Shown here: positions 8,654 to 50,170 of the stretch, piece by piece
How the letters are laid out: each line of letters starts with the position of its first letter
How positions within the stretch are numbered: the first letter of the stretch is position 1
From: Planctomycetota bacterium
Lineage (GTDB): Bacteria > Planctomycetota > B15-G4 > SIAN01
NCBI GenBank assembly: GCA_031409275.1
Contig: JANNXA010000045.1
Span: 4,396-68,395, forward strand
Direction of reading: 5' to 3'
DNA: 64,000 nucleotides
The notes under the pieces: generated by a model
Seen by the model: the letters and a program-made list of their open reading frames with translations, nothing else
Databases searched by the model: none
What the model was told of the DNA's origin: nothing
Program-made: the position numbers and the translations under genes

Positions 8654-8715
8654 ACGACGATCCGTAAGGTCGGCGCTGCTCCGACCTCCTCGAACGTGGG
8701 CCAGGAATCGAAACG

Positions 8716-9693: not shown

Positions 9694-9694
9694 C

Positions 9695-10777: not shown

Positions 10778-10791
10778 CGAGGACCTCCCTC

Positions 10792-35405: not shown

Positions 35406-36977
35406 CTACGACTGGTCGAGCGTGTAGCTCACCGCCTCGATGCCCGGACGCCCCGCCATCTGGCTCTGCTCCCACTTGATGAAGTCGGAGCGCACGCCCA
35501 TGACGTTGCTGTAGCGGATCGTGTAGTGCGTCCAGTCCTTCGCCATCAGCTCGTCGGACAGCTCGCGCTCGTGCTCCAGCAGCCCCGCCTTGCGCTTGTC
35601 CCAGGTCGCCTTGTCCATCGCCTCGACTTCGCGGACGAGCTCCTGGTAGATCGGTGCGCATGGCCAGTCGGTCCGCGCATTGACCCACCACGTGCACAGC
35701 TTCCCGAGCTTCTCGAGGAAGAGGTCGTGCTCGGGGCTGAAGTTGAGGCAGCTGCCGTCGAAGTAGTTGCCTAGCCCCTTCATCTTCGATTCATCGATCA
35801 GCGGCTTGGCGATGTCGTAGCCGACCGTTCCCTTGAACGGGAAGAAGATGGCCCAGCGGAAGCGGCCGAGCTTCACCTTCGCGCACAGCTCGAACGTGTC
35901 GAGGATCTCGGCGCGCCCTTCGTGAGGCAGACCGAACATGATGAAGGCGGAGGTGTGCAGGTCGTACTTGTGCGCGTTCGCGAAGCTGTCCTCGATCTGC
36001 TGGTTCGTCATGTAGCGGTGCAGGACGTCGCGGCGGATGCGATCGTTGCCCGACTCGAGCCCGAACTTCACGATCATGCAGCCCGCTTCCTTCAGGTAGC
36101 GCGCCGAGGCGTCATCGAAGCAGTTGACGTGGCCGTTGACGACGAACGGGAGGCCGACGTTCGCTTCCTGGTAGGCCTTGCAGAACTTCTTCACGTACGG
36201 CTTGTTCAGCGTGAAGAGGTCGTCGTCGAAGATGAACGTCTTGATCTGCGGGTAGCGCCCGCGCAGATCCTTCAGCTCGGCGATCTGGCGCTCGATCGGG
36301 AAGCTGCGCAGGAACTCCTTCGGCCCCTTCGCCGCGCCGTCGGCGACGTACTGGTCGACGATCTCGAGGTTGAAGCAATAGGTGCACTTGTAGGGGCAGC
36401 CGCGCGAAGTGAGGATCCCCATCCACCCCTTCGTCGCCGCCAGCACCTTCGGCATGTCGAAGACTTCGTAGTCGAGCGCCGGCAGCGTGTCGAGGCCCGG
36501 GAATGGCGCAACCGGCTTGATCTTCTTCTCGCCGCCGACCCAGCTTCGGATGCCGTTCACCTCGGTCGGGTCGCCGCCCTTCACGAGCGCGTCCATCACG
36601 TCGACGAGCGCATAGTCGCCCTCGCCGATGCAGACGTAGTCCCACAGCTTCGACTCGTGCACTTCGTCCGGCACCATCGTGCAGTGGACGCCGCCGATGA
36701 TCTGCTTCAACTCGGGGAACGCGGCGCGGATCGCCTTGCCCGCCTCGATGCACCAGTCGTACTGCATCGAGAGCGCGGAGAAGCCGATCAGGCCGGGCTT
36801 GGTCTCGCGCACGTAGTCGACGACCTGCGCCATCGTCGGCACCGGCTCGAGCTTCTCGCAAACGTGCCAGAGGTCCATCTCGTGGCCGCGCGACTTCACG
36901 ACGCCCGCGAGCGAAGCGATGCCGTGGTTGCTGCCAGCCGGCGCGTCGAGGCTCGGGTAGAGCAGAAGGATCTTCAT
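35406..36977 (-). CDS. B12-binding-domain radical SAM enzyme (class B).
   Basis: Start at ATG 36977 (MKILLLYPSLDAPAGSNHG, cobalamin-binding domain). Radical SAM cluster motif SRGCPYKCTYCFN, then a TIM-barrel region. Confidence 0.85.
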   Translation of the reverse strand: MKILLLYPSLDAPAGSNHGIASLAGVVKSRGHEMDLWHVCEKLEPVPTMAQVVDYVRETKPGLIGFSALSMQYDWCIEAGKAIRAAFPELKQIIGGVHCTMVPDEVHESKLWDYVCIGEGDYALVDVMDALVKGGDPTEVNGIRSWVGGEKKIKPVAPFPGLDTLPALDYEVFDMPKVLAATKGWMGILTSRGCPYKCTYCFNLEIVDQYVADGAAKGPKEFLRSFPIERQIAELKDLRGRYPQIKTFIFDDDLFTLNKPYVKKFCKAYQEANVGLPFVVNGHVNCFDDASARYLKEAGCMIVKFGLESGNDRIRRDVLHRYMTNQQIEDSFANAHKYDLHTSAFIMFGLPHEGRAEILDTFELCAKVKLGRFRWAIFFPFKGTVGYDIAKPLIDESKMKGLGNYFDGSCLNFSPEHDLFLEKLGKLCTWWVNARTDWPCAPIYQELVREVEAMDKATWDKRKAGLLEHERELSDELMAKDWTHYTIRYSNVMGVRSDFIKWEQSQMAGRPGIEAVSYTLDQS

Positions 36978-37253
36978 CCGGCGTGCGCTCCGGGAACAAG
37001 TCAGAGCAGCGAAGCCCCCGCGAACCAACGCGGCGACGCCTCCGGAAAACGGCTCTCCAGAGGGCTCCTCCCTCGAAACAGGACCAAACTCATACAGATT
37101 CGAGCAGTCGATGCAACGCGCGCATTCGCACGGAGTTGTGGCGGGCGCGGTCGCTTCGGAACCAACTTCTCACCGCGCCCAGGCGTTTCGGCTCCGGATG
37201 GAGCGCCTTGTGACGATTCCTAGGTAGCCACCCCAACGTCGGAGTCCGCCGCC

Positions 37254-37640
37254 ATGCACCCCCCTCGACCCAAGCGAGCCACTCGATCGCGCCGCAGCGG
37301 CTTTGCGCTCGTCGAGTTGATGGTGACTTCGATCGTGCTGATGACCGGATGCGTCGCCCTGGTGCTCTCCACCAGCACCACCGGCCTCGCGACCTTCAAG
37401 GCCGAGCAGGCCAGCGTCACCAAGAACACGCTCGACTGGCTGCTCGAAAGTCTCGCCGACGTGGAGTTCGACGACCTGCTGTCGTGGAACGGGGTCAGCT
37501 TCGACCGCGGCGACCACACCGCCCGTGTCAACGCAACCACGGTGTCGCTCGGACTGATCAGCCTCGAGATGACGGTCACCGACGACCGCACCGGCAGCGT
37601 CCTGGGGCGCATCGCGACGCTGCGCTCGGGAGGCTACTGA
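37254..37640 (+). CDS. Prepilin-type N-terminal cleavage/methylation-domain pseudopilin (T2SS or type IV pilus minor pilin-like).
   Basis: GGAG Shine-Dalgarno 9 nt upstream of ATG 37254. Basic leader then G-F-A-L-V-E-L-M-V class III signal-peptide motif with a hydrophobic helix. Confidence 0.7.
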   Translation: MHPPRPKRATRSRRSGFALVELMVTSIVLMTGCVALVLSTSTTGLATFKAEQASVTKNTLDWLLESLADVEFDDLLSWNGVSFDRGDHTARVNATTVSLGLISLEMTVTDDRTGSVLGRIATLRSGGY

Positions 37641-37641
37641 G

Positions 37642-38229
37642 ATGGCGACCCCACGACGCAAGACGCGCGGCACCACGCTGCTCGAGACCTCGATCACGGC
37701 GACGCTCCTCGTCGGGGTGGTCGGCACCGCGCTCTCCCTGACGCGCGAATCGCAGGGCGTCATGCTCGATTGCATGCGCGCACTCGCCGAGCGGACCGAG
37801 TCGAGCAACGCGTTCGACGAGCTCGCCGAGTCGATCGCGCAGGCGAATGGCGCGACCCTCCAGATCGACACCCGTCCGGTGGACGGCGACCTCCTGCTGC
37901 TCCAGGTGCCGGTCAACCTCGTCGGCAGCGCCGCGACGTGGGGCGCGACCTCTCTCGACCGCGTCACGTCCACGCAATGGGCCGGCGCCTTCGACGAGTA
38001 CCGGCTGATCGCGTCGCAGAACCACCGCACGAAGTTCCGCCTCACCCGCCGACCGGTCGACGCGAACGGCCAGCCACTGGCCGCGGCGGTCGACATCGCC
38101 GACGGGATCGATGGCGTCGACTCGGCGGGCCACAAGGGATTCACCGTCTTCCGTGACGCGAGCCTCGTTCGCGTCACCCTGCGCGTCGGACATGCCGTCG
38201 ACGTCACCGTCCGTCTGCGCAATCCGTGA
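37642..38229 (+). CDS. Second pseudopilin-like protein (GspJ/PilW-like).
   Basis: Start 1 nt after the upstream stop. N-terminal G-T-T-L-L-E-T-S-I-T prepilin-like motif and a hydrophobic segment. Confidence 0.6.
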   Translation: MATPRRKTRGTTLLETSITATLLVGVVGTALSLTRESQGVMLDCMRALAERTESSNAFDELAESIAQANGATLQIDTRPVDGDLLLLQVPVNLVGSAATWGATSLDRVTSTQWAGAFDEYRLIASQNHRTKFRLTRRPVDANGQPLAAAVDIADGIDGVDSAGHKGFTVFRDASLVRVTLRVGHAVDVTVRLRNP

Positions 38230-38237
38230 GAACTCCC

Positions 38238-40151
38238 ATGAACCGCATGCCCATCGCTTCGAACGTCCAAGGAATGCGCACGCGAAGCCGCGAAGCGGGC
38301 TCCACGCTCGTCGTCGCGCTCGCATCGACCATGCTCGCCGCGGGCATCGCCTACGCCGGCCTGTCGATCGCCACGACCGGCCAGGCCGACTCGGCGCGCC
38401 AGGAACTCAAGCTGCGCGCGAAGGCGCTGGCCGATGCCGGGGTGCATCGCGCCGTGACCTTCCTGAACCAGACCACGCACCTGAGCCCGTTCGATCCATT
38501 CGCCGCGGTCGACGCGCTCCTGTTCGACGGTGGCGGAGCGCCGATCGACTACGCGCTGGCGGAGGACGAGCCGCTCACCGTCGGCGGTCGCACCTACGGC
38601 AGCTACTCGGTCCACGCGTCGGCGATCCAGAACGGGCTCGTGCGCGACGTCACCGTGACCGCGACCGGCTACGTCCCGAACCGCCAGGCGGCCCAGTTCC
38701 GCAAGACCGTGCAGGCGGTCGTGCGACTCGAACAGCGCCCCGCCGAAGTCTTCGACTACAGCTACTTCATCAACAACTGGGGCTGGTTCTACGGCAGCAC
38801 GATCAACGGCTACGGCAACGTGCGCTCGAACGGACAGTTCGACGCCGCCAACTACTCGCCAGGCGTCTTCGGTGCGCCGCGCTACGAGCAGATGGACCTG
38901 ACCAACCCGTCGCTGCCCGACCTCGTCGGCTACCAGGACGACAACCACGACGGCATCGTCGACGGCACCGACGGCGGGATCTTCGCCGGCTGGGACATCA
39001 AGGACTCGACCCACGTGCGCGGCCTCGGCGGCGACACGGCGAACCAGCACGACTACGTCGCGCAGGTGCCGATGCCCAACTTGAGCGACCTCGCCGTCTA
39101 CGAGTCGATGGCGCTGTCCGCGGGCGCAAGCCTGTCGATCAGCGGCGGCGCCGGCTTCCCTGCGACCCCGGTCACCGACGCGGTGCTCGGGGACGGCGTC
39201 GGCGAGAAGCAGAACCTGGTGCTGATCGGCACCGTCGACAAGCCGATCCTGCTGAACGGTCCGGTCGTCGTCCGCGGCGACGTCATCCTGTCGGGCGTGG
39301 TGAGCGGCCAAGGGTCGATCTACGCCGGCGGCAACGTCTACGTCGCGAAGAACATCACCTACCTCGATCCGCCGACGACCTCGAAGCCGGCGACCAACAG
39401 CGAAGCGGACACCGAAGCGTGGATCGCGGCGAATCACTCGAAGGACTTCCTCGGCCTCTTCGCCCGCGAGCATGTCGTCATGGGCGACTACACGAACTGG
39501 ATCTGGCGCTACTACGTCAACTGGTGGATGAACGACTCGATGAACGCCAGCGTCGAAGACGCGGGTCTCGACCAGATCCCGGGCACGCGGGCCGGTCGCG
39601 ACGGGATCATGAACACCGCCGACGATGACATCCTCGAAGGCGATGGCGTCTTCACCGTCGACCGCTACACGCAGGCGCACGCGAACCTCGGCCAGATCCC
39701 CGCGGGCAAGAGCGTCGGCGACGTGATCCCCGGCTCGGGCGAGGACATCGATGGCGACGGCAGCTTCGACGCGACCGCAACGCTCTCCGAGTTCGACCTG
39801 CCCGCCGCGCTGAACAGCGGCCAATGGGCCGGCAACGTGCCGCCTGGCACCGCGAACTTCAGCGAGATCTCGACGCTCGAACTCACCGACGTGAACGCCG
39901 CGATCTACACGAACCACGCCGCCGCGATGGTGACGCTGGCCTGGGGACGCGACTTCAACCTGCTCGGCGCAATCGTCTCGCGCAACGAGTCGATGATCTA
40001 CGGCACCAACAGCATGAACCTCACCCACGATCGCCGGCTCACCGCGGGCGGCGCGTACGGCAGTCTGCTGCCGCGCGAAGTCGTCGCGGCGCGAATCCTC
40101 ACCTGGCGCACGCTCGAGCAGGACGTGCACTTCCTCGGAGCCACACCGTGA
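38238..40151 (+). CDS. Large GspK/PilX-like pseudopilin-family protein (about 640 aa).
   Basis: N-terminal GSTLVVALASTMLAAGIAYAGL helix lacks Glu5, as in GspK. Long Gly/Asn/Asp-rich extracellular region. Start uncertain among GTG 38226, ATG 38238 and ATG 38274. Confidence 0.6.
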   Translation: MNRMPIASNVQGMRTRSREAGSTLVVALASTMLAAGIAYAGLSIATTGQADSARQELKLRAKALADAGVHRAVTFLNQTTHLSPFDPFAAVDALLFDGGGAPIDYALAEDEPLTVGGRTYGSYSVHASAIQNGLVRDVTVTATGYVPNRQAAQFRKTVQAVVRLEQRPAEVFDYSYFINNWGWFYGSTINGYGNVRSNGQFDAANYSPGVFGAPRYEQMDLTNPSLPDLVGYQDDNHDGIVDGTDGGIFAGWDIKDSTHVRGLGGDTANQHDYVAQVPMPNLSDLAVYESMALSAGASLSISGGAGFPATPVTDAVLGDGVGEKQNLVLIGTVDKPILLNGPVVVRGDVILSGVVSGQGSIYAGGNVYVAKNITYLDPPTTSKPATNSEADTEAWIAANHSKDFLGLFAREHVVMGDYTNWIWRYYVNWWMNDSMNASVEDAGLDQIPGTRAGRDGIMNTADDDILEGDGVFTVDRYTQAHANLGQIPAGKSVGDVIPGSGEDIDGDGSFDATATLSEFDLPAALNSGQWAGNVPPGTANFSEISTLELTDVNAAIYTNHAAAMVTLAWGRDFNLLGAIVSRNESMIYGTNSMNLTHDRRLTAGGAYGSLLPREVVAARILTWRTLEQDVHFLGATP

Positions 40152-40666
40152 ACGGGACTGCAACACCGTGGCCACGCGCCGCGCTCGGCGCGTTGCTGGC
40201 GCTCGGCATCGCGCTCCCCGGTGAGGCAGGCGCGCAGAGCTCGGCGCCGTCGACCTCGGGTCGGCCAGCCGAAGCGACGCTGCGACTGCGCGGCAGGAAG
40301 CTCGACACGCGCGCGAGCCTCTACCCCGGCTCGGCCGATCTCGCCGCGAGCGGCTGGGACCACCGCGATCGCGAGCTGCGTCAGCTCGGCCTCGAGACGG
40401 TCGAGGCGAGCATGCCTGAGATCTTCGACCCGGAAGTGCTGCGAGCCCGGGCGCTCGCACTGCATGGCGGCGCCGAAGTGGAGAGCGCCACCGTGGCGCG
40501 CACGCCGCTCGAGCCGCGCTCGTTCGCGACCGCTTCGGAGCTCGACGCCCCGGCGCCCGCACGATTCGGAGTGGTCACCGGCGGGCTCGTCGCTTTCGCC
40601 GGCGCGCTGCTGCTGCTGGCGGCGCGCCGCAAGCGACGGCTCGCGCGATCGAGCGAGCAACCGTAG
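40148..40666 (+). CDS. Small secreted protein with an N-terminal signal-like segment and a C-terminal Gly-Gly, hydrophobic helix, basic tail (sortase-type sorting-signal-like).
   Basis: GTG 40148 overlaps the upstream stop (GTGA), so it is translationally coupled to the pseudopilin operon. C-terminus reads FGVVTGGLVAFAGALLLLAARRKRRLARSSEQP. Confidence 0.45.
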   Translation: MNGTATPWPRAALGALLALGIALPGEAGAQSSAPSTSGRPAEATLRLRGRKLDTRASLYPGSADLAASGWDHRDRELRQLGLETVEASMPEIFDPEVLRARALALHGGAEVESATVARTPLEPRSFATASELDAPAPARFGVVTGGLVAFAGALLLLAARRKRRLARSSEQP

Positions 40667-40674
40667 GAGCCGGC

Positions 40675-41310
40675 TCAGCCGCGGCGCTTCTTCAGCGGCT
40701 TTCCGTCGGCGCTGGTCGGCGGCGCGTCCTTCGCCGTGCCGCCATGCTTCTTGCCTTCGAGCGGCGGGATGCGGCCGTCGGCGAGCGCCTGCGCGAGGTA
40801 CTCGACTTCGCCCTGAATCGTGGTGTCGGCGGTCTTCGGACTCTCCTTGGGATTCAGGCAGAAGAGGTCCCACGCCTCACCCCGCTCGCCATGCTGGCGC
40901 ACGTTCCAATCGCCCGACTTCTTGTCGCGCGACAGAGGGAAGAGGACGCAGCGCCACGGCTTGTACTGGAAGCGGTCGCCTTCCTCGGCCCCGACCTTGT
41001 GGAGCACGCAACCGTCGTTGAAGAAGATGCACCAGCCTTTGCTGACCTTCAGCGTCGGCAGCCCCTCCTTCTCCTGATCGGAGAGCCAGCCGCTCTTCTC
41101 CGCCAGCGCGCGCGCCTCTGGTCGCAGGTGCGGCATGAACTTCGGCAGGTGCTTCGCGATCCGCTGCTGCTCGTGCGGCTCGACCGCCGGTCGGCCGTTC
41201 ATGCAGCAGATCCCGCCACACGTCGGATAGACGCAGTCGAAGTGGGCGGTCTTCAGGTTCGCGATCGGCGGCGCCACGGCGAGGGGCACGGCGACTTTCT
41301 TCTTGCTCAC
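40675..41310 (-). CDS. YkgJ-family cysteine-cluster (putative Zn/Fe-chelating) protein.
   Basis: Carries the CxxCxxCC motif as CVYPTCGGICCMNG. ATGA overlap with the upstream GNAT gene. Confidence 0.7.
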   Translation of the reverse strand: MSKKKVAVPLAVAPPIANLKTAHFDCVYPTCGGICCMNGRPAVEPHEQQRIAKHLPKFMPHLRPEARALAEKSGWLSDQEKEGLPTLKVSKGWCIFFNDGCVLHKVGAEEGDRFQYKPWRCVLFPLSRDKKSGDWNVRQHGERGEAWDLFCLNPKESPKTADTTIQGEVEYLAQALADGRIPPLEGKKHGGTAKDAPPTSADGKPLKKRRG

Positions 41311-41906
41311 GAGCGCTCCTTGCGCGAAATCTCGGGTCCGCGCGCGGGCGACAACGGCCGTCCATCGACGCGGCGGGCGTAGACGACCTTGTCGTCGCCG
41401 AGGCGGTAGTAGTCGGGGATGCGAGCGATCTCGACGTAGTTCGCCCGTTCATAGAAGCGGCGCGTCGGCAGATAGGACTCCTTGCCGCCCGTTTCGATGA
41501 GGATCATGCGACCGCCGGCAACCCGCACGGCATCTTCGGCCGCGCGCAACAGCTGTTGACCGATGCCAACCCCGTGCAGCGTCGGATCGACGGCGATCCA
41601 GTAGAGATCGAAGATGCCGTCGGTGAGCGGCGTGAGGCCCCAGCACACGTAGCCGACCGCACGCGCCGCATCGCGTTCGCCAAGTTCGGCGACGCGGAAG
41701 CAATAGTCGTCGGGAAGCGCGGCGGCACCCGATCGCGCCTTGGCGATCCCCTCGTCGATCAGCTCCATCGCGACCGCCAGCTCGTTGTCGGGGAACGAAC
41801 CGGTGGCGCGCAGGATCGCTTCGAGCGGCGCGCGATCGCTGGAATGCAGCTCACGCAACCGGACCGGGCCGGGCAAGCGCGAGGAGGCGGGCGACGAGCT
41901 GCTCAT
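41307..41906 (-). CDS. GNAT-family N-acetyltransferase.
   Basis: GNAT fold motifs VRLRELHSSDRAPLEAIL and acetyl-CoA site VAVDPTLHGVGIGQQLL. The ATG at 41906 overlaps the upstream ATP-grasp gene by 56 nt; a TTG near 41861 is an alternative start. Confidence 0.7.
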   Translation of the reverse strand: MSSSSPASSRLPGPVRLRELHSSDRAPLEAILRATGSFPDNELAVAMELIDEGIAKARSGAAALPDDYCFRVAELGERDAARAVGYVCWGLTPLTDGIFDLYWIAVDPTLHGVGIGQQLLRAAEDAVRVAGGRMILIETGGKESYLPTRRFYERANYVEIARIPDYYRLGDDKVVYARRVDGRPLSPARGPEISRKERS

Positions 41907-42876
41907 AGGTAGCCCCGGTGCGACCCCACGCGCGGGCGAAGCCGGCGTCGGGCGATAGGTCGGGATTGGGATTCGCTTCGAGGACGATCGGCGCGTCGGA
42001 GCCGTCGAGCCGCAAATCGATGCGGCCGTAACCCGTGAGCGACAGCGCATGCCACGCCGCGAGCGCGGCGCCCTGCACCCGCGCCGCGACCGCGGGCGCA
42101 AGCACGGCGTCGACGACGTTCGTGCCGTTCCAGTCGGGGCTGCCCTCGACCCACTTCGACTCGAAGGTGACCAGGCGCGGCCGTCCGGATGGGAACTTGG
42201 CGAAGTCGATCTCGGCCACCGGCAGCACTTGCGGCGCGTCGGCCGTCCCGACCAGCGCGACGTTCAGCTCGCGACCGGCGACGAAGCGCTCGACGAGGGC
42301 GGGCTGCCGATAGGTCTCGACGACGTAGCGCGCACGCGCGCGCGCCGCTGCGACGTCGTCGACCACGCTCGCCGCGGTGATGCCGTGGCTCGCATCTTCG
42401 CGCGCCGGCTTCACGATCCACGGGAACGGCGCACGCGCCGCCAGCGCCGCCAGCAACGCATCGTCGCGAGGATCGCCGCGCTCGAACACGACCCCGTCGG
42501 CGACCGGAACGCCGCCCGCCGCGAGCAACGCCTTCGCCAGTGGCTTGCGCAAACTGAGCGCGCACGCAAGCGAGCGATTCCCGGTGAACGGCAACCCGGT
42601 CAGTTCGAGCAGCGCGGCGACCGCCGGTTCGAGCGCCGCGTCGCCGCGGTAGGACTCGACGAGATTGAAGACGACGTCGGGATGCGCGCGCTGCAGCGCG
42701 GCCAGCAAATCGGCCGGCTGATCGGGCGCCGGTTGCAGCCGCGCTTCGTGGCCCAGCGTGGCGAGCGCCGCCGCGACGGCTCGCGCACAGCTCTGCACGG
42801 AGACGACCGCGAGCGCATCCTGAGCGGATCCGTGGGCGAGCGCCTCCTCGGCGTTGTGCAGCACGACGACACGCAT
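41851..42876 (-). CDS. ATP-grasp enzyme of the D-alanine-D-alanine ligase family (Ddl-like amino-acid ligase).
   Basis: 341 aa with ATP-grasp features (PWIVKPAREDASHGI, VERFVAGRELNVALVG, C-terminal Mg/ATP site EANPNPDLSPD). Confidence 0.75.
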   Translation of the reverse strand: MRVVVLHNAEEALAHGSAQDALAVVSVQSCARAVAAALATLGHEARLQPAPDQPADLLAALQRAHPDVVFNLVESYRGDAALEPAVAALLELTGLPFTGNRSLACALSLRKPLAKALLAAGGVPVADGVVFERGDPRDDALLAALAARAPFPWIVKPAREDASHGITAASVVDDVAAARARARYVVETYRQPALVERFVAGRELNVALVGTADAPQVLPVAEIDFAKFPSGRPRLVTFESKWVEGSPDWNGTNVVDAVLAPAVAARVQGAALAAWHALSLTGYGRIDLRLDGSDAPIVLEANPNPDLSPDAGFARAWGRTGATYEQLVARLLALARPGPVA

Positions 42877-42884
42877 CGCGGCGA

Positions 42885-43877
42885 TCAGCTCCGCGGCAGG
42901 CGGGAGAGCGCCTGGTCGAGGATGCGACCGATCAACCCGTCATGGTCGAGGCCGACGCGCTCCGACATCACGCAGAGGTCGCTCCAACCCGGGTTGACGC
43001 CCGGCAGCGGATTGAGCTCGATGAAACGAGGCACGCCATCGGCTCCGAGCCGCACATCGACGCGACCGACGTCGCGACACTGCAGCGCGCGATAGGCGGC
43101 CAGCGCGGTGCGTTCGACCGCGGCCGTCAGCTCCGGCGCGCGGCGCGGCGGGACGTGGTATTCGACCTGCTCGTCCCAGACGCGCTTCACCTCGACCGAG
43201 TAGACGAAGTCCGCGGTGACGCCGCCCTTCGGGCAGATCTCCATCGTCGCGAGCACGTGCGCGCGCTCGCCCTGACCGAGGATGCCGACGGTGAACTCCG
43301 GCCCGGTGAGGAACTCCTCGATGAGCGCGGGCTGCTCGTAGCCGGTCAACAGGCGCTCGACTTCACGGCGCAGCGCAGCGTCGTCGTTGCTCTTGCTGGT
43401 CTTGCGCACGCCCATGCTCGAGCCTTCGAACAGCGGCTTGGCGATGCATGGAAACGGCAGTTCGAGAGTCGCGAGCTGCTCGACCGTCGAGACCACCACT
43501 CCGCGCGCGACGGCGACGCCGGCGGCAGCGGCGATGGTCTTGGCCAGCGCCTTGTCGAGGCTGAGCGCGAGCGTCAACGGATCGCTGTGGGTGCAGGGAA
43601 CGCCGACCATCTCGCAGGCGGCCGGCACGTGCGCCTCGCGCGAACGGGTGCCGTGGCCTTCGGCGACGTTGAAGACGAGCTCGGGCGGCCGCTCCAGCAG
43701 CGCGGCGAGGAAGCGCTTGCCGCCGCCCATGCGCCGCGGACGGTGGCCGCGCCGACTCAACGCCGCCTCGATGGCGGCGATCGTGCGATCCGAGTCGTAC
43801 TCCTCGAGCCGATCGTCCGGTGCGCCAGCGGCCGCCGTGAAGTCGCTCTTCAGGTCGAATGCGATGCCGATGTCCAC
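42885..43877 (-). CDS. Second ATP-grasp enzyme of the D-alanine-D-alanine ligase family.
   Basis: GTG start 43877 with an AAGGG Shine-Dalgarno 7 nt upstream; the upstream 470 codons of ORF 42885..45293 are Arg-rich antisense of kamA. ATP-grasp motifs (FPCIAKPLFEGSSMGV, IEEFLTGPEFTVGILG, ELNPLPGVNPGWSD). Confidence 0.75.
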   Translation of the reverse strand: MDIGIAFDLKSDFTAAAGAPDDRLEEYDSDRTIAAIEAALSRRGHRPRRMGGGKRFLAALLERPPELVFNVAEGHGTRSREAHVPAACEMVGVPCTHSDPLTLALSLDKALAKTIAAAAGVAVARGVVVSTVEQLATLELPFPCIAKPLFEGSSMGVRKTSKSNDDAALRREVERLLTGYEQPALIEEFLTGPEFTVGILGQGERAHVLATMEICPKGGVTADFVYSVEVKRVWDEQVEYHVPPRRAPELTAAVERTALAAYRALQCRDVGRVDVRLGADGVPRFIELNPLPGVNPGWSDLCVMSERVGLDHDGLIGRILDQALSRLPRS

Positions 43878-43906
43878 GACCGCCCTTTCGTCCGCTCGCG
43901 CTTCGT

Positions 43907-45379
43907 TCAGGTCGAGTCGCGACGACTGCGGCCGCGGTGCGCCCACTTGCTCTTGCCGACCACGGTCTCGGTGGCCGGTGGCGCCGGCGCGGCTCCGTCC
44001 GCAGCGCTCGACGCCGACGCTGCGACGACCGGCGCTTTGCTCCGACCGCCGCTCTTCTCGCGACCATGGCTGCCATTGCGGCCGTTGCTCGAATGGCCGT
44101 TCTGCTCGGCCGCGTCGGCCGCCGACACCGCGAGTGCCGGCCGCGCGTGGCTGCTGCTCAGCGCGATCGGACCAGCGGCCGGCGTCGCGTTGGCCGAGGC
44201 CACGAGACGGCGGTGCAGGATCTCCTCCTCCGGCAGCTGCTCGAAGTACTCGAAGATGCGCCCCTGGAAGTTGCGCAGGATCGCGCGCTGCTTCTTCGGG
44301 TCGTAGTGGAGCAGGTAGTTGGGATTGACCGGCACCTTGCCGCCGCCGCCGGGCGCGTCGATGACGTACTGCGGCACGGCGAGTCCGGAGGTGTGGCCGC
44401 GCAGCCCCTCCATGATCTCGAGTCCCTTGGCGATGGTCGTGCGCATGTGTTCGCTGCCGCGCACCGGATCGCAGTGGTACACGTAGTAGGGGCGCACGCG
44501 CATCTTCATCAGGCCGTGCATCAACCCCTTCATGGTCTCGACGCTGTCGTTGACGCCCTTCAGCAGCACCGCCTGGTTGTTCAGCGGGATGCCGGCACGC
44601 GAGAGCATGTCGCACGCGCGCGCCGCTTCGGGCGTGCACTCGCGCGGGTGGTTGAAGTGCACGTTCACCCAGAGCGGGTGGTACTTCTGCAGCATGTCGC
44701 ACAACTCGGCATCGACTCGCTGCGGCAGCGAGACGGGCACGCGGGTGCCGATGCGGATGATCTCGAGATGCGGGATGGCCCGCAGCTTGGAGAGGATCGA
44801 TTCGAGCTTGCCGGTCGAGCAGGTGAGCGGGTCGCCACCCGACACGACCACGTCGCGCACGGTCTTGGTCTTCGCGATGTAGTCGACCATGCGGTCGATC
44901 TCCATCTCCGGCACGGCGTCCTCGTACATGATCCGCTTGCGCGTGCAGTAGCGGCAGTAGACCGCGCACGAGTTGCTGATCACCATCAGCACGCGATCGG
45001 GATAGCGATGCGTGATGCCGGGGACGGGCGAGTAGGCCTCTTCGCCGAGCGGATCCTCGTCGCCGACGTCGCGGTAGGTGTACTCCTCCGCGATCGGCAC
45101 CGCCTGCCGCAGGATCGGATCGTCCGGATCGTCGGCATCGATCAGCGCCAGGTAGTACGGCGGGATGCCCATGCGGAAGTCGCGCAGCACCTCGCGGCGC
45201 ACCTCGCGCTCGCCTTCGGGGATCGGCAGCAGCTTGATCAGCTGTTCGAGGTCCGTGACGCGATTGCGGAACTGCCACTTCCAGTCGTTCCACTCCGCGT
45301 CGGAGACGTTCGGGTAGTAGTGGGCGCGACCCGTGCGTCGCGCAGCCACTGCGGCAGCGAGCCCGCTGCTCTGGATCAC
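43907..45379 (-). CDS. kamA: Lysine 2,3-aminomutase (radical SAM, KamA family).
   Basis: KamA N-terminal WNDWKWQFRN and the radical SAM CxxxCxxC motif CAVYCRYCTRKR. GTG start 45379 with a GGGAGA Shine-Dalgarno 8 nt upstream. 490 aa with a low-complexity C-terminal tail. Confidence 0.85.
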   Translation of the reverse strand: MIQSSGLAAAVAARRTGRAHYYPNVSDAEWNDWKWQFRNRVTDLEQLIKLLPIPEGEREVRREVLRDFRMGIPPYYLALIDADDPDDPILRQAVPIAEEYTYRDVGDEDPLGEEAYSPVPGITHRYPDRVLMVISNSCAVYCRYCTRKRIMYEDAVPEMEIDRMVDYIAKTKTVRDVVVSGGDPLTCSTGKLESILSKLRAIPHLEIIRIGTRVPVSLPQRVDAELCDMLQKYHPLWVNVHFNHPRECTPEAARACDMLSRAGIPLNNQAVLLKGVNDSVETMKGLMHGLMKMRVRPYYVYHCDPVRGSEHMRTTIAKGLEIMEGLRGHTSGLAVPQYVIDAPGGGGKVPVNPNYLLHYDPKKQRAILRNFQGRIFEYFEQLPEEEILHRRLVASANATPAAGPIALSSSHARPALAVSAADAAEQNGHSSNGRNGSHGREKSGGRSKAPVVAASASSAADGAAPAPPATETVVGKSKWAHRGRSRRDST

Positions 45380-46123
45380 CTGGAATCTCCCTGGAATCGC
45401 GCGGAGCGGACGATGCGATGAAGCATCGACTCGCGTGTCAGAGGTGAGCGCGCGACGCCGGCCATGTTGGAACGGCGGATGCAGCGTGACGCGTCGAGAC
45501 GACGCGTCGCCATCCGCGACTGCTTCGCGAACGTTGGAATCGGAAGGGGGCGAACCGAGCGCGAGCCGGAACGGATGCGAAGGGGAGCGACGGTCGCGAC
45601 GAGCGCGCCGAGCCGACCGCAGCCGGCGACGGCGCGCGTCGTACCTGGAGGTTCGCTCTCGACCGATGCTTCGTCCGCATCGACCCCGAGCGCTCGGATG
45701 CGACCGGCGCTCCGCGAGCCTCGTCCACTCTCCCCGACCACGAGGAGCATCACGTTCGTCCGCGAGGTCTTCCGCAGCGGCCAGCAGCCGCCAAAGCGTT
45801 CCCCTCGATCAACGGCGGGACGTCGCAGTTGCGATTGGCCGACCCGACCCATCGCAAGCTTGTCGAACGAGTCCCGTCCCTCGCCTCGACGGCGACTCGT
45901 CGAACGAGCGCGCTGGGTCAAGCTCAGGAAGAACGGGCGGAACCATACGGACGTCAGGAGGGGGCTGACAAGCGGCAAGCCGGCTCCAAGTACAAGGTGT
46001 TGAGAACCTCGCCGCCACGTTTCGCCGAAAGGGCCGCTTGGATGCGCGCTTGAACGGTGCACCGCCGACGTTGAAGCTCACCTGCGAGCCGGACCACGCT
46101 CCATCCACGGATCGCCCCACTTC

Positions 46124-48154
46124 ATGAAACCCCTCGCCGCCGCCTGTCGCACCGCCCGTTTCGGAGCCCTCGCGGCGGGCGCCGTGGTCGGAGTCGCCGG
46201 CTGGCAATGGCCGACGCTCTTCGGCTCCGCCGGGGAGCGGCTGGGAACGGGGCTGCTGCTCGTGGTGGTGCCCACCGTCGTCGCCGCGCACGTCGCGCTG
46301 CCGCTGGCCCAGCGCCTCGCGAGCGCGGTCGCCGCCGCGCTCTGGAGCGGCGTGCTGGTCGCCGTCGTGGCGGCGCTCTACCTGCCGACGGTCACCCCGC
46401 TCGCCGTCGCCATCGCTGCCGCCGTCGGCGCGCTCGTGGGTGGACTGATTGGCCGCAGCAACTGGTTCGAGCGGCGCGCCGCCACCGTCGTCGCCGTGGT
46501 CGCGCTGGCGGCCGCCAGCAGCGTCGGCGTCGTGCGCCGCCCCCTGCCAGCCGAACCCGCGTCGCCCCACCCGAACACCTTCGTCTTCGGCCTCGACGCC
46601 GGCACCTGGACGATCCTCGACGAACTGATGGCGAACGGCGACCTCCCCAACCTGCGCCGACTGCGCGAAGAGGGAGTGAGCGGCACGCTGCGCTCCGAAA
46701 TCGAGTCCTCATCGCCGCGCGTCTGGACCACGATCGCCACCGGCAAGACCCCTTCGAAGCACGGTGTCGTCGACTTCTTCTGCACGCAGAACGACAACCT
46801 GACGACGCGCCGTGTCTGGGAGATCTTGCAGGCGCAGGGCTACAGCGTCGGGTTGTTCCAGTGGCTGGTGACCTGGCCGCCCGACCCCTTCGATCCCTTC
46901 GTGGTGCCCGCATGGATGGCGCGCGGTCCGGAGACGCATCCGGCGGAGCTCTCGTTCATCAAGGAACTCGAGCTCGCGTTCCAGACCGGCGAGTTCGACC
47001 AATGGCGCGCGCAACGCGAATGGCCCACGCTGCTCACGCGACTGCGCGACTGGGGAGTCGGATACCTGCGCCACGGACTGCGCATGCCGACGCTGTGCGC
47101 CGCCCTGTCGCAAGCGTGGACGGCCGCGACGAGTCCGAGCTGGGAACTCCAGTACGGCGCCAAGCGGACGCTTCAGCTGCTGCTGAACGGCGACGTCTAC
47201 CGTGAGCTCTACCGCCGCCACCAGCCCGACTTCTCCGCCTTCATCTGCTACGGGACCGACAACCTCGCCCACAAGTTCTGGCAGTACCACTACCCCGACG
47301 ACTTCGCGATCCCGCACGGCGCCGCCGCCCCCTTCGCCAACCTGCTGACCGACTACTACCGCGCCGCCGATGCGCTGCTCGGCGAGGTGCTCGCGCTGCT
47401 GCCCGCGGACACGACGGTGGCCGTCGTCTCCGACCACGGCTTCACGTCGATCGGCGAAGGCGGCGAGTCGCACCAACGGGAGCTGCGTCCGAAGATGAGC
47501 CGGCTCGCCTCGCTGCTCGAGCTGACCGAACGCGACGTCCTCTGGTCGGCCGTCGCGACTCGCGGCTACTTCCGGCCCGTCGCAGGCGCCATCGGCGCCG
47601 ACGCTGCCGCACGGAGGATCCTCGACTTCCTCGGCGGCTGCGAGGTCGTCGGCGGTCCGAAGCTCTTCGTGCCGAAGGTGCTCGACTCCGGCCAGATCGA
47701 GGTCGCGATCAACCTCGACGTGAAGTTCGAGCGCGACACCGAATTCGCCACGCCGAAAGGGCCGATGCTCCTCACCGACCTCGTCGACGTCGAGGATCGC
47801 ACCGGCAACCACTCGATCGACGGGATCGTGCTGTTGCGCGGTCCGGCGTTTCGCCGCGGCGCGCGGATCGAGACCGCTCACCTCGCCGATGTGACGCCGA
47901 CGCTGCTCCACTTGAATGGGTTCGCCGTCGGCGCCGACATGGACGGCCGCGTGCTCGAAGAGGCGTTCACCGATGCGTTCCGTGAAGAGCACTCGATCGA
48001 GCGCATCGAGAGCTGGGACGATCTCGTGAATGTCACGCGCGCAGCGGCCGGACCAGGCGACGAGCGCGGGTGGCGCAAGTACGCCAGCGAACTCGGCTAT
48101 GTCGATGGCGGCGACAAGGCGACGCCCGCCGGAGCACCGAAGGAGCGGGAGTAG
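46124..48154 (+). CDS. Membrane-anchored alkaline-phosphatase-superfamily enzyme (type I phosphodiesterase/nucleotide pyrophosphatase family).
   Basis: Three to four N-terminal TM helices, then FGLDAGTW (metal-site Thr nucleophile region) and VVSDHG motifs. Confidence 0.75.
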   Translation: MKPLAAACRTARFGALAAGAVVGVAGWQWPTLFGSAGERLGTGLLLVVVPTVVAAHVALPLAQRLASAVAAALWSGVLVAVVAALYLPTVTPLAVAIAAAVGALVGGLIGRSNWFERRAATVVAVVALAAASSVGVVRRPLPAEPASPHPNTFVFGLDAGTWTILDELMANGDLPNLRRLREEGVSGTLRSEIESSSPRVWTTIATGKTPSKHGVVDFFCTQNDNLTTRRVWEILQAQGYSVGLFQWLVTWPPDPFDPFVVPAWMARGPETHPAELSFIKELELAFQTGEFDQWRAQREWPTLLTRLRDWGVGYLRHGLRMPTLCAALSQAWTAATSPSWELQYGAKRTLQLLLNGDVYRELYRRHQPDFSAFICYGTDNLAHKFWQYHYPDDFAIPHGAAAPFANLLTDYYRAADALLGEVLALLPADTTVAVVSDHGFTSIGEGGESHQRELRPKMSRLASLLELTERDVLWSAVATRGYFRPVAGAIGADAAARRILDFLGGCEVVGGPKLFVPKVLDSGQIEVAINLDVKFERDTEFATPKGPMLLTDLVDVEDRTGNHSIDGIVLLRGPAFRRGARIETAHLADVTPTLLHLNGFAVGADMDGRVLEEAFTDAFREEHSIERIESWDDLVNVTRAAAGPGDERGWRKYASELGYVDGGDKATPAGAPKERE

Positions 48155-48190: not shown

Positions 48191-49978
48191 TCAGCGCCAC
48201 CGCATCGCGTAGGGCAGCGTGCACAGCAGCTGCCAACGCCCGCTGCCGGCAGGCGGCTCGGCGAGGAACGGCGCGAGCGCCTGTTCGAGGCCAGCGCCGC
48301 CGACCTCCCGCGCCAGCAGCGCCAACGGCGCCTTCACGCTCGCGAGACTCCCGAACTGCTCCTTCAACTGCTCGAAGAAGTCGGGCGCCTCGGGCAGCTC
48401 GCGCCGCGGCGTGCTCTTCGGGTCGAGTCGACCGCCGAGGAAGCACGCCATGGTGATCGCCTCGCGCAGCCCGCCGAAGCCGTCGATCAGCCCGATCTCC
48501 TTGGCTTCGCGACCGCTCCAGACGCGGCCGCGCGCGTTGAGTTCGAGCGCGACCGGGTCGAGCTTGCGACCCGCCGCGGCCTTGGCCACGAACTCCCCGT
48601 AGAGCTTCTGCATCGACGCTTCGAGCTTCCCGCGCAGCATCGGCGGCAGGCCGTCGCGCATGGTGGAGAGCTCTTCGGCGTGCGGGCCGTAGCCGACGAC
48701 CTCGACGTTGATGCCGACCTTCTCCCACGCTTGCGCGAGATTCGGCACCGCGGCGACCACGCCGATCGAGCCGGTCACCGTCGAGGGCTGCGCGAGGATG
48801 CGGTCGCACCCCATGGCGATCCAGTAACCGCCCGACGCCGCGACTCCGCCCATCGATGCGACGACGGGCTTCGCCTCGCGGCAGCGCTGCACGGCGCGCC
48901 AGATCAAGTCGCTGGCGAGCGCGCTGCCGCCCGGACTGTTGATGCGGAGGACGACTGCCTTCACCTGCTCGTCGGTGCGCGCGGTATCGAGTGCCTCGAC
49001 GATGGTGTCGGCCCCCATCGTCTGACCGCCCAACCCGGCGCTGCTCTTGCCGCTCATGATCGCGCCGGTGGCGTAGACGATGGCGATGCGCGAGCCGTCG
49101 GGAAGTTCCTCGTCCTTCGGCTCGAGCAGCTCCTTCAGCTTGGTGAAGACCGTGAAGGGGTTGTCGAACTCGCTGAGGTCGAGCCCCTCTTCGCTGCCGT
49201 AGTCCTCCACCTTCGTGGGCGCGCTGCCGAGCAGCGTGGCCACCTTGGCGTCGAACTCATCCTCGTAGCCCACCGCGTCGATCAGGCCGAGCTCGAGCGC
49301 CCGCGCCGGAGCGAGCAGGACCTCTTCGAAGCCCGCTTCGACCTGCGCCGGCGCGACGTTGCGATTCTTGGCGATGGTGGCGACCATCGTCTCGTAACGC
49401 TCTTTGAGGAGTGCGCGCAACGAGGTGCGCTGGCCATCGCTCATCGAGTCGCGCGCCATGTCTTCGTAGGCGGTCTTGAACTCGCCGACGTGGAGCACGT
49501 CGTAGCGCACGCCCACCTTCGCGAGCAGCTCCTTCATGTAGAGGATCTCGGCCGCGGGCGCTTCGAGCGCGAGCTCGCCCTGCGGCGGGAGCATCAGCAG
49601 GTCGGCGACCGACGCGAACCAGAGCGCGCTGTCATCGAGCGACTCCGCGAAGCAGACGATCTTCTTGCCAGCGGCGCGCGCCGCCTGCAGTTCGCGAAGG
49701 ACGTCCTGCGCGCGGGCGCCGTCGAGGCCATGGAACGGCGAAAGTCGGATCGCCGCCACGGCCGGGTCGTTGGCCAGCGCGCGCAGCCGCTCGAGCTCCG
49801 CCAGGAAGTTGCGGCCGCGCGGACCGAAGGGAGCGGAGGCGATCGGGTCTTCGTCGCCGAGTTCGCTCAGGTCGACCGTCACCAGTTGCGGTGCGTCAGC
49901 AGCCGGCTTCGACTCGTCGAGGCGGCCAAAGACGGGCAACAGCGTGCCAAGCAGGCACGCACCGAGCGTCGTGGACAT
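48191..49978 (-). CDS. sppA: Signal peptide peptidase SppA (protease IV, 67K type).
   Basis: Start ATG 49978 (MSTTLGACLLGTLLPVFG). Two ClpP/crotonase-like halves with catalytic-site context ASMGGVAASGGYWIA. Confidence 0.85.
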   Translation of the reverse strand: MSTTLGACLLGTLLPVFGRLDESKPAADAPQLVTVDLSELGDEDPIASAPFGPRGRNFLAELERLRALANDPAVAAIRLSPFHGLDGARAQDVLRELQAARAAGKKIVCFAESLDDSALWFASVADLLMLPPQGELALEAPAAEILYMKELLAKVGVRYDVLHVGEFKTAYEDMARDSMSDGQRTSLRALLKERYETMVATIAKNRNVAPAQVEAGFEEVLLAPARALELGLIDAVGYEDEFDAKVATLLGSAPTKVEDYGSEEGLDLSEFDNPFTVFTKLKELLEPKDEELPDGSRIAIVYATGAIMSGKSSAGLGGQTMGADTIVEALDTARTDEQVKAVVLRINSPGGSALASDLIWRAVQRCREAKPVVASMGGVAASGGYWIAMGCDRILAQPSTVTGSIGVVAAVPNLAQAWEKVGINVEVVGYGPHAEELSTMRDGLPPMLRGKLEASMQKLYGEFVAKAAAGRKLDPVALELNARGRVWSGREAKEIGLIDGFGGLREAITMACFLGGRLDPKSTPRRELPEAPDFFEQLKEQFGSLASVKAPLALLAREVGGAGLEQALAPFLAEPPAGSGRWQLLCTLPYAMRWR

Positions 49979-50170
49979 CGCGGCTCTCCAGGAGAACAGG
50001 GCGAAGCGTGGCGTTTGCGGCGAGCGGCACGGCAAAGCGGGGGCCGCGCGATCACGCGGCGAGATCGACTCGACGGGACAGGCAGGACCACCGCGAGCGC
50101 ACGATGCGGCGCGCGGGGTCGAAACGGGGCCGGTGGCGAGGACCCGTGAGGCGCCGTGGCGCCTCGTTCG

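Follow-up and report, generated by a model that had tools for sequence, protein, structure and literature searches.

A lysine 2,3-aminomutase and Ddl-like ATP-grasp ligases recur together in diverse bacteria and may form a beta-lysine-based pathway

Results

A five-gene operon with a long leader

In the window (by which we mean the whole stretch of 64,000 nucleotides that was analysed, from a Planctomycetota bacterium), positions 40675-45379 hold five co-directional genes on the minus strand, which encode a lysine 2,3-aminomutase (KamA), two ATP-grasp ligases (AG1 and AG2), a GNAT acetyltransferase, and a Cys-rich protein. In the direction of transcription, the features are:

45942..45971, minus strand: sigma-70-like promoter TTGTCA-N18-TATGGT, the sole such site in 40300-46300 (0.2 expected)
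45380..45941, minus strand: long 5' leader, from an alignment of 7 related leaders
43907..45379, minus strand: lysine 2,3-aminomutase of the KamA/AblA type, 490 aa, GTG start (Radical_SAM and LAM_C)
42885..43877, minus strand: AG1, Ddl-family ATP-grasp ligase, 330 aa, GTG start (Dala_Dala_lig_C)
41851..42876, minus strand: AG2, second Ddl-family ATP-grasp ligase, 341 aa, ATG start (Dala_Dala_lig_C)
41307..41906, minus strand: GNAT N-acetyltransferase, 199 aa, ATG start (Acetyltransf_1/7)
40675..41310, minus strand: Cys-rich protein of the DUF3109/Rv0495c family, 211 aa, GTG start (PF11307)

A preliminary description of this locus had proposed a five-gene operon of tightly spaced or overlapping genes, and the open reading frames and their junctions (+29, +8, -56, and -4 nt, from KamA to DUF3109) bear this out. 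Its 56-nt overlap between AG2 and GNAT also holds, provided that GNAT starts at ATG 41906; this start is compatible with a solved ortholog (see below), whose alignment begins at residue 4. There is no space for a precursor peptide at the junctions. The GTG start of KamA is backed by the leader's Shine-Dalgarno sequence, a GGAG box at 45390-45387 that is kept in 6 related loci.

The 744-bp non-coding leader of the preliminary description is correct in length (45380-46123), but on its other side lies a divergent phosphodiesterase gene, and related loci keep the ATG of this gene too. The CTTG and CTAT cores of the promoter are kept in related loci as well. Given a promoter at 45942-45971, the 5' UTR of the operon would be about 555 nt. 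Within it are a conserved hairpin, CUCCUC-N6-GGGGAG, at 45747-45730 and, 96 nt downstream of that, a CCUCC box at 45654-45647. When we ran RNAalifold on the conserved segment of the leader, only this first hairpin was supported, and there was no covariation. A search of the leader against Rfam gave no match at E <= 1. Similarly, at the gathering score, 35 related loci contained no riboswitch, and the Na+ and c-di-AMP types in particular were absent. The minus strand of the window's leader has no sigma-54 promoter.

We considered some neighboring genes as additional members of the operon and rejected them. The synteny of a B12-radical-SAM gene is limited to close relatives, and the phosphodiesterase and SppA genes are lineage-specific.

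The aminomutase is of the lysine type

KamA passes the cut-off of the broad family model (TIGR00238, 358 bits vs. 199). Among equivalog models, the best-scoring is AblA (TIGR03820) with 486 bits, yet this is under the trusted cut-off of 525; the score for EpmB (TIGR03821) is just 266 bits, under its cut-off of 369. Compared to a lysine 2,3-aminomutase of solved structure (PDB 2A5H, E = 2e-138), the CxxxCxxC motif, Asp293, Asp330, and Lys337 are all kept, and all 78 of the cassette-linked matches to KamA have D-D-K at the latter three positions. Asp293 and Asp330 are known to bind the epsilon-ammonium group of lysine (Ruzicka & Frey) and are Lys and Asn in glutamate 2,3-aminomutase; Lys337 is the residue that binds PLP. 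Taking the scores and the residues together, KamA is very likely a lysine-type 2,3-aminomutase that is nearer to AblA than to EpmB. Glutamate or arginine aminomutase identity is ruled out by D293/D330 and the order of the scores. Residues 381-490 form a low-complexity C-terminal tail. KamA is about 77% identical across the Planctomycetota.

The ligases are unlikely to be D-alanine-D-alanine ligases

AG1 and AG2 are 35% identical to each other. Both retain the ATP-grasp catalytic residues (K97, K144, E187, K215, R255, D257, E270, and N272). The triad that recognizes D-alanine (E15-S150-Y216) is altered: it is E-S-R in AG1, with the arginine in 102 of 103 sequences, and A-A/G-W in AG2, with the tryptophan in all 78. 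(The triad is numbered as in E. coli DdlB, whose sequence was verified over residues 63-304.) Where the D-Ala pocket of Ddl has neutral residues, AG1 has acidic ones, many and invariant (in EEYD, His63 to Glu, and GSG to HSD), as well as arginines (in RSREA and Tyr216 to Arg). The family of AG1 proteins that is coupled to KamA has the invariant motifs EEYDS, RSREAHVP, THSDP, and K-R. From sequence alone, we infer that the acidic residues and arginines of AG1 could accommodate a donor with two basic groups (beta-lysine would be one) and an acceptor that is polar or bears a carboxylate. A structural model of AG1 has a confident Ddl fold and is nearest to small-molecule ligases. PylC is not the closest neighbor of the ligase, by either structure or sequence.

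The preliminary description would have been refuted if the ligases were bona fide Ddl or associated with MurF and were not conserved beside kamA, or if the aminomutase grouped with EpmB. Neither is the case: the ligases fail the cut-off of the NCBIfam model for Ddl (NF002378; 148 bits for AG1 and 126 for AG2 vs. 243), the aminomutase prefers AblA by the scores given above, and AG1 comes immediately downstream of KamA in 60 of the 72 informative loci. Considering the Ddl scores, the altered triad, the conservation beside kamA, and the fusions to KamA (see below), we are confident that neither AG1 nor AG2 is a true Ddl.

The acetyltransferase and the Cys-rich protein

The GNAT, which is separated from KamA by the two ligase genes, has the acetyl-CoA loop HGVGIG. 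It does not match the AblB model (TIGR03827) at E <= 0.01. Its NCBIfam matches, none of which comes near its cut-off, are to RimI (35 bits vs. 86) and to two further GNAT models (21 and 16 bits). It has an ortholog of solved structure from Desulfovibrio alaskensis G20 (PDB 2R7H, E = 5e-31), which remains uncharacterised. The depositors named that protein a "putative D-alanine N-acetyltransferase."

The last protein of the operon had been described as a CxxCxxCC protein of the YkgJ family (PF03692), and this claim fails. The protein does not match PF03692 (YkgJ/UPF0153) even at E <= 10. Instead, it belongs to PF11307 (DUF3109, now Rv0495c; 49.4 bits vs. a gathering score of 33.5, E = 6e-13), and its motif is C-x4-C-x3-CC. 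Its conserved residues are C26, C31, C35, C36, C94, C101, C121, C151, and H104. Further along, the pattern C-x-F...C-x-L-H...KP-x-x-C-x-x-FP resembles that of PF03692, and a distant kinship is possible but has not been shown. There is no solved homolog in the PDB, and the model that AF2 built from one sequence was too poor to use (pLDDT 38). Rv0495c from M. tuberculosis, the sole member for which we found a study, affects redox balance, with no biochemical function given in the relevant passages (bioRxiv 10.1101/2023.08.22.554105). The claim that this gene is part of the set is partly right: it is in the operon here, but it is next after GNAT in only 21 of 61 loci, of the Planctomycetota and Sandaracinus types. 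It is a lineage-restricted accessory that lies outside the core of the cassette.

The gene set is conserved across phyla

KamA and the ligase occur together far more often than chance would allow. KamA is not adjacent to AG1 in 12 of 72 loci. The second ligase is present in 63 of 73 loci, as is the GNAT, and the order KamA-AG1-AG2-GNAT is kept across loci that range from 36 to 73% GC. Besides Planctomycetota, the same gene set is found in at least five bacterial phyla; the sources of the cassette include Planctomycetota, Myxococcota, Dehalococcoides, Dehalococcoidia, Desulfovibrio, Woeseia, and a metagenome-assembled genome from the Actinomycetota. Many of the loci are from freshwater or groundwater. 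In some genomes, KamA and AG1, or AG1 and AG2, are fused into a single protein, and in fusions P0370, P0375, and P0376, AG2 is C-terminal to AG1. Dehalococcoides mccartyi, whose genome is just 1.4 Mb, has a minimal KamA-AG1 pair and no GNAT. This organism is known to lack peptidoglycan. We also observed zur-znuABC downstream of the pair in Dehalococcoides. Conversely, loci of the Sandaracinus type encode AG1-AG2-GNAT-DUF3109 without an adjoining KamA.

Some loci contain other genes. In 5 loci, the cassette is followed by a fusion of a GNAT with a deacetylase that is similar to acetylpolyamine amidohydrolases. A zinc peptidase is present in some loci, and one fusion is followed by an S66 peptidase (LD-carboxypeptidase family). 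In one locus only (L110), an MFS transporter lies between a KamA-AG1 fusion and AG2. These accessory genes are of a small-molecule type. The regulators that we saw are an XRE-cupin protein and, together with a corresponding promoter, a sigma-54 activator. A regular-expression scan of 109 loci found one gene for a LysW-like carrier, upstream of a KamA-AG1 fusion. The window and the other loci that we inspected lack mur, ddl, and fts genes near the cassette, and neither the window nor the 108 loci examined for it has a gene for EF-P.

Discussion

A proposed pathway

We propose that the operon encodes a dedicated pathway for a small molecule derived from beta-lysine, and that its product is an acetylated di- or tri-(pseudo)peptide that is built by ATP-grasp enzymes. 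We lean towards this reading with a probability of roughly 0.6, and the product is inferred: none has been observed. Counting in its favor are the lysine-type aminomutase, the conserved gene order, the fusions, the minimal pair in Dehalococcoides mccartyi, the residues of the ligases and the modelled fold of AG1, the accessory genes and regulators of some loci, and junctions too tight for a precursor peptide. The first step, the conversion of L-lysine to beta-lysine by KamA, is well supported. The remaining steps are inferred. AG1 would spend ATP on joining beta-lysine to a second partner through an amide bond; AG2, which is paralogous but differs in its specificity pocket, would append a further amide-linked unit; and the GNAT would acetylate one of the product's free amino groups. 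The DUF3109 protein would be a lineage-specific helper, for which we do not propose a role. The acetylated beta-lysine peptide or amine conjugate that the preliminary description suggested is supported, though only by inference.

In bacteria and archaea, beta-lysine is known as a precursor of an osmolyte (AblAB), as an intermediate of fermentation, as a modifier of EF-P, and as a building block for nonribosomal peptide synthetases. The product of the cassette might be a compatible solute, a polyamine-like polycation, or an exported metabolite. The preliminary description included an osmolyte among its options, but this has no direct support, because many of the loci are from freshwater or groundwater and because we found no riboswitch for Na+ or anything else. 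Nor is the cassette tied to osmoadaptation by any transporter or riboswitch related to salt.

Because none of the papers that we found names the product of this recurring gene set, it is probably an undescribed small molecule based on beta-lysine. The preliminary description had claimed that the product class it suggested was not assigned to these genes, and we found no description of the cassette in the literature that we searched; this did not include the amidoligase survey of Iyer et al. 2009, which might cover it.

A bolder reading is that KamA with an AG1-type ligase is a widespread route, so far unrecognised, to beta-lysine amides of a new class. It would yield either a polyamine-like conjugate or a dipeptide or isopeptide with a beta-lysyl group, which AG2 lengthens and acetylation masks, and this product would be a core physiological metabolite of Planctomycetota, Dehalococcoidia, Desulfovibrio, Myxococcota, and others. 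We could argue for or against this reading, including its product, with equal conviction. If it is true, then the AG1 family would be the first Ddl-fold enzyme that is dedicated to a beta-amino acid.

Alternative explanations

One alternative is the plain AblAB route to N-epsilon-acetyl-beta-lysine, with the ligases being unrelated Ddl paralogs for the cell wall that lie in between. KamA's best model is AblA, there is a GNAT in the same operon, and operons of the AblAB type have been described in bacteria (PMC3543383; PMC9337991). But the cassette is not a plain AblAB pathway, because its GNAT is not of the AblB type. Also, the ligases fail the tests for Ddl, many phyla keep both of them between KamA and GNAT, fusions of KamA to AG1 exist, and the pair in Dehalococcoides has no GNAT and occurs without murein. 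We consider this explanation very unlikely. It seems just as improbable that the ligases have a role in the cell envelope, where an unusual peptide with beta-lysine would go into peptidoglycan or some other polymer of the wall. The Ddl fold, the S66 gene after one fusion, and the name given to 2R7H could be taken to point this way, but no mur, ddl, or fts genes are nearby in the window or the inspected loci and, again, Dehalococcoides has no peptidoglycan.

Two other alternatives are less remote, but we still doubt them. The cassette could make a secreted bioactive oligomer of beta-lysine or a metallophore, similar to the chain of streptothricin but assembled by ATP-grasp enzymes, with the GNAT and the deacetylase serving for self-protection and activation. 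Resistance to streptothricin arises when a GNAT acetylates beta-lysine on its beta-amino group, and we count this in favor, along with the MFS transporter inside the cassette of L110, the GNAT-deacetylase fusions, and zur-znuABC in Dehalococcoides. On the other hand, the cassette is conserved widely and with high similarity (as for KamA across the Planctomycetota), it is kept in a streamlined genome, and apart from the one transporter it has no hallmarks of a biosynthetic cluster. The cassette might instead modify proteins: beta-lysine from KamA would be put onto a protein by the ligases, by analogy to the beta-lysylation of EF-P, to tailing by RimK or TTL, or to a LysW-like carrier, and the GNAT would acetylate the protein or the adduct. 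The LysW-like gene hints at carrier-bound chemistry, at least in its lineage, which counts against our main reading. Among named families, the GNAT is nearest to RimI, a protein acetyltransferase; this too counts against a small-molecule pathway, though the score is far under the cut-off. The Sandaracinus-type loci and the 12 loci without KamA beside AG1 also count against our main reading.

Significance and comparison with known systems

If a ligase-based beta-lysine pathway is present in many phyla, then it would make a new class of metabolite. It would give a function to about 640 representative clusters that are mis-annotated as "D-alanine--D-alanine ligase," including some from organisms that have no peptidoglycan, and it would explain the orphan structure 2R7H. 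The bacteria with the cassette include Dehalococcoides, which is used in bioremediation, and Desulfovibrio, which is genetically tractable.

The small-molecule pathway that we favor has parallels in several known systems. As in the AblA/AblB pathway, a KamA/AblA-type aminomutase comes first, beta-lysine is the committed precursor, and a GNAT is in the same operon; unlike that pathway, the cassette has two Ddl-family ligases in between, which are sometimes fused to the aminomutase, its GNAT is from another family, and its minimal unit is KamA plus a ligase rather than KamA plus a GNAT. AG1 and AG2 share their fold and ATP-grasp catalytic residues with the Ddl/VanA family, but they are only about 25-30% identical to it, they score about half of the family's cut-off, their E15-S150-Y216 triad is altered, and they lack a murein context, even occurring in an organism that has no murein. 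In EpmB/EpmA, a KamA-family aminomutase also feeds beta-lysine to an ATP-dependent ligation, but EpmA is a paralog of LysRS rather than an ATP-grasp enzyme, the aminomutase of the cassette is not EpmB-type, and it is not linked to efp. Ngg, with its GNAT and ATP-grasp domains, makes N-acetylglutaminylglutamine amide (NAGGN), a small acetylated dipeptide solute. The likeness, N-acetylation plus a peptide bond formed by ATP-grasp, is in logic only, without a sequence comparison, and Ngg is from a different ATP-grasp clade, uses alpha-amino acids, and has no aminomutase. In the synthesis of pyrrolysine, PylB is a radical-SAM mutase that rearranges lysine, and the ATP-grasp ligase PylC then joins the resulting diamino acid to an amine. 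This logic of a mutase and then a ligase is the nearest mechanistic precedent for the cassette.

The operon and its gene calls

Five ORFs, all on the minus strand, lie at 40675-45379 of the window, which is about 70% GC and whose nearest relatives are Planctomycetota MAGs.

43907-45379, minus: KamA, the lysine 2,3-aminomutase; 490 aa, GTG start, Pfam Radical_SAM and LAM_C
42885-43877, minus: AG1, a Ddl-family ATP-grasp ligase; 330 aa, GTG start, Pfam Dala_Dala_lig_C
41851-42876, minus: AG2, the second such ligase; 341 aa, ATG start, Pfam Dala_Dala_lig_C
41307-41906, minus: GNAT; 199 aa, ATG start, Pfam Acetyltransf_1/7
40675-41310, minus: Cys-rich protein; 211 aa, GTG start, Pfam DUF3109 (PF11307)

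From KamA to the Cys-rich gene, the junctions are +29, +8, -56, and -4 nt, so there is no room for an additional small gene. The preliminary description had assigned the last protein to PF03692 (YkgJ), and this label was wrong: Pfam gives DUF3109, without any match to PF03692 up to E ≤ 10. Eight cysteines and one histidine are conserved in this protein, which lacks a solved homolog. The one studied member of the family that we found, Rv0495c, has a known redox phenotype.

KamA forms beta-lysine

When compared to NCBIfam, KamA scored 486 bits for AblA, 453 for glutamate 2,3-aminomutase, 399 for arginine 2,3-aminomutase, and 266 for EpmB, and only the general KamA-family model passed its cut-off. 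KamA aligns with the structure of lysine 2,3-aminomutase from Clostridium (2A5H; E = 2e-138) and retains the CxxxCxxC cluster, the PLP-binding lysine, and both aspartates that hold the epsilon-ammonium group of lysine. Furthermore, Asp293, Asp330, and Lys337 of 2A5H (D-D-K) are present in all 78 of the 78 cassette-linked KamA homologs that cover those positions. KamA therefore acts on lysine and makes beta-lysine. We consider this step to be shown by the scores and the residues, which do not address stereochemistry.

The two ligases

AG1 and AG2 share 35% sequence identity, and each matches Ddl/VanA at about 25-30%. Against the Ddl model they reach 148 and 126 bits, respectively, roughly half of the 243-bit cut-off. 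Our alignment to E. coli DdlB included 103 AG1-type and 78 AG2-type sequences, all taken from the fetched loci. Because K97, K144, E187, K215, R255, D257, E270, and N272 (DdlB numbering) are kept in both families, AG1 and AG2 should both be active ATP-dependent ligases, which is a likely inference from sequence alone. The two families diverge from DdlB at positions that set substrate specificity: Tyr216 of DdlB is replaced by Arg in 102 of 103 AG1-type proteins and by Trp in 78 of 78 AG2-type proteins; AG1 retains Glu15 as part of an invariant EEYD motif, and AG2 has Ala there; and His63 is Glu in both. RSREAHVP and THSDP are also invariant in AG1. AlphaFold models AG1 with confidence (pLDDT 92, pTM 0.91), and a family profile matches only Ddl/Van structures in the PDB, followed by far weaker matches to L-amino-acid ligase and cyanophycin synthetase. 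We also noticed an AG1-type ligase (P0486, 980 aa) behind about 590 residues that, by eye and without a Pfam check, resemble leucine-rich repeats; this protein might be of eukaryotic origin.

A conserved cassette with fusions

We collected 18 loci from a species-level genome scan, 80 more from a metagenome scan, and ten from look-ups of individual proteins. In tblastn searches with the five proteins, the order KamA-AG1-AG2-GNAT (the cassette) recurs repeatedly, in loci that span 36 to 73% GC. Counting only loci with sufficient flank, KamA is directly upstream of AG1 in 60/72, a second ATP-grasp gene comes after AG1 in 63/73, GNAT follows in 63/73, and DUF3109 follows in 21/61. The carriers include many Planctomycetota, Sandaracinus amylolyticus, Dehalococcoides mccartyi and other Dehalococcoidia, Desulfovibrio mangrovi, D. 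psychrotolerans, an Oleidesulfovibrio G20-like strain, Woeseia, and an Actinomycetota MAG. Sandaracinus-type loci have AG1-AG2-GNAT-DUF3109 with KamA not adjacent, and the D. mccartyi locus has an overlapping KamA-AG1 pair alone, followed by zur-znuABC. D. mccartyi has no peptidoglycan, so its AG1 cannot be a murein Ddl. In a D. mccartyi-like locus (L106, 6710-12036), genes for a Fur-family regulator and znuABC-like proteins come after KamA-AG1 in the same orientation; this may be coincidental, or it may reflect a connection with metal homeostasis.

When we searched 1.84 billion representatives exhaustively with HMMER, 637 clusters matched at E ≤ 1e-30. Among the best matches are KamA-AG1 fusions (P0422, P0440, P0473, and P0498; 739-784 aa) with both halves intact and D-D-K present. 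There are also AG1-AG2 fusions (P0370, P0375, and P0376), whose halves are arranged as the separate genes are. Combined with the gene order, the fusions argue strongly that AG1 acts on the product of KamA and that AG2 works with AG1. We take the functional coupling of KamA, AG1, AG2, and GNAT to be shown.

GNAT and accessory genes

GNAT has no AblB match in NCBIfam. It is a clear ortholog of PDB 2R7H (E = 5e-31, full length), a Desulfovibrio G20 protein that its depositors named "putative D-alanine N-acetyltransferase"; we found no publication on 2R7H in the literature that we searched. In five unrelated loci (L107, at 8629-10386, and L099, L038, L039, and L017), the cassette is directly followed by a 585-aa fusion of a GNAT with a histone-deacetylase/acetylpolyamine-amidohydrolase-like domain. 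Judging from gene content, a reversible acetylation cycle might act on the product. Occasional members of the cassette are an XRE-cupin regulator, a Peptidase_Mx zinc peptidase, and an S66 peptidase. In another locus (L110, 7001-11666), an MFS transporter overlaps the end of a KamA-AG1 fusion and is followed by an AG2-type ligase, a hint that this lineage may export or import the product. These accessory genes are typical of small-molecule metabolism.

Leader and regulation

The preliminary description's 744-bp gap is real and reaches the divergent phosphodiesterase gene (46124-48154).

45971-45942, minus: sigma-70-like promoter TTGTCA-N18-TATGGT, the only one of the region, within the gap
45380-45941, minus: 5' leader of kamA, with a hairpin (45747-45730) and a CCUCC box (45654-45647)

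The promoter is conserved among relatives, and from its position the 5' UTR would be some 555 nt long. A GGAG box precedes the GTG start of KamA and is kept in six related loci. The hairpin (AUG-CUCCUC-N6-GGGGAG) is shared with the six closest relatives (L001-L003, L023, L026, and L027). The GA(A/G)CCUCC box lies 96 nt downstream of it in the window and three relatives and 93 and 72 nt downstream in two others; it was not found in L027. Conservation of both elements is limited to these six relatives. The two anti-Shine-Dalgarno-like boxes could conceivably sequester the GGAG of kamA, as inferred from sequence alone. There is no covariation that would prove a structured RNA, and no Rfam family matched the leader or 35 related loci.

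In the G20-like locus and in D. mangrovi, a sigma-54 activator precedes the cassette, and the D. mangrovi cassette has the promoter TGGCAT-N5-GTTGC. We infer that such an activator drives the Desulfovibrio cassettes, but the kamA leader of the window revealed no sigma-54 promoter. Separately, the window encodes a 1627-aa regulator (28572-33455, plus) with Ser/Thr kinase, TPR, GAF, sigma-54 activator AAA+, and HTH_8 domains.

Neighboring genes

35406-37028, minus: B12-binding radical-SAM protein, 540 aa, 83-92% identical in relatives
37254-40151, plus: pseudopilin-like block, between the B12-radical-SAM gene and the operon
46124-48154, plus: membrane-anchored type I phosphodiesterase/nucleotide pyrophosphatase, divergent from the operon
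48191-50035, minus: SppA-type S49 peptidase, next after the phosphodiesterase gene

In L023, L027, and L028, the B12-radical-SAM gene comes directly after the DUF3109 gene, and it may be a lineage-specific sixth member of the operon. The pseudopilin-like block comprises a protein with an N-terminal methylation motif (37254-37640) and ORFs of 195 and 641 aa without Pfam matches; it was probably inserted in the window's lineage, and in L001 too. Synteny of the phosphodiesterase (L001-L003, L023, and L026) and of the peptidase (L001-L003 and L026) is limited to close relatives, so these two genes probably do not belong to the system.

What the cassette might do

The observation in the preliminary description and its main idea, an undescribed beta-lysine-based pathway, both held and are considerably strengthened: this is very likely a conserved, multi-phylum beta-lysine ligase cassette. 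We found no description of its product in the literature that we searched, and its amide partners, acetylation site, and physiological role are only inferred.

Alternatively, KamA and the ligases might modify EF-P or another protein, which we think is unlikely. KamA is not of the EpmB type, no locus that we examined contains efp, EpmAB is reported in Planctomycetota and Chloroflexota, and the nearest fold is Ddl, not RimK. Ligation to a LysW-like carrier protein remains possible at low probability. The support for it is one locus (L109), where the ORF at 6164-6364, upstream of a KamA-AG1 fusion, encodes a LysW-like zinc ribbon of 66 aa whose tail is acidic (…DDYKDDNEEEEDFN); downstream of the fusion, at 9199-11253, are a peptidase of the S66 (LD-carboxypeptidase) family and an ORF of 374 aa resembling another ATP-grasp. 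Such an ORF was seen in L109 alone. We cannot rule out that the product is a secreted bioactive compound or binds metal, given the MFS transporter within a cassette and zur-znuABC behind the Dehalococcoides pair.

As for known systems, the gene context and Dehalococcoides both contradict a role in murein, and the plain AblAB reading fails on the family of the GNAT, on the fusions, and on the Dehalococcoides pair.
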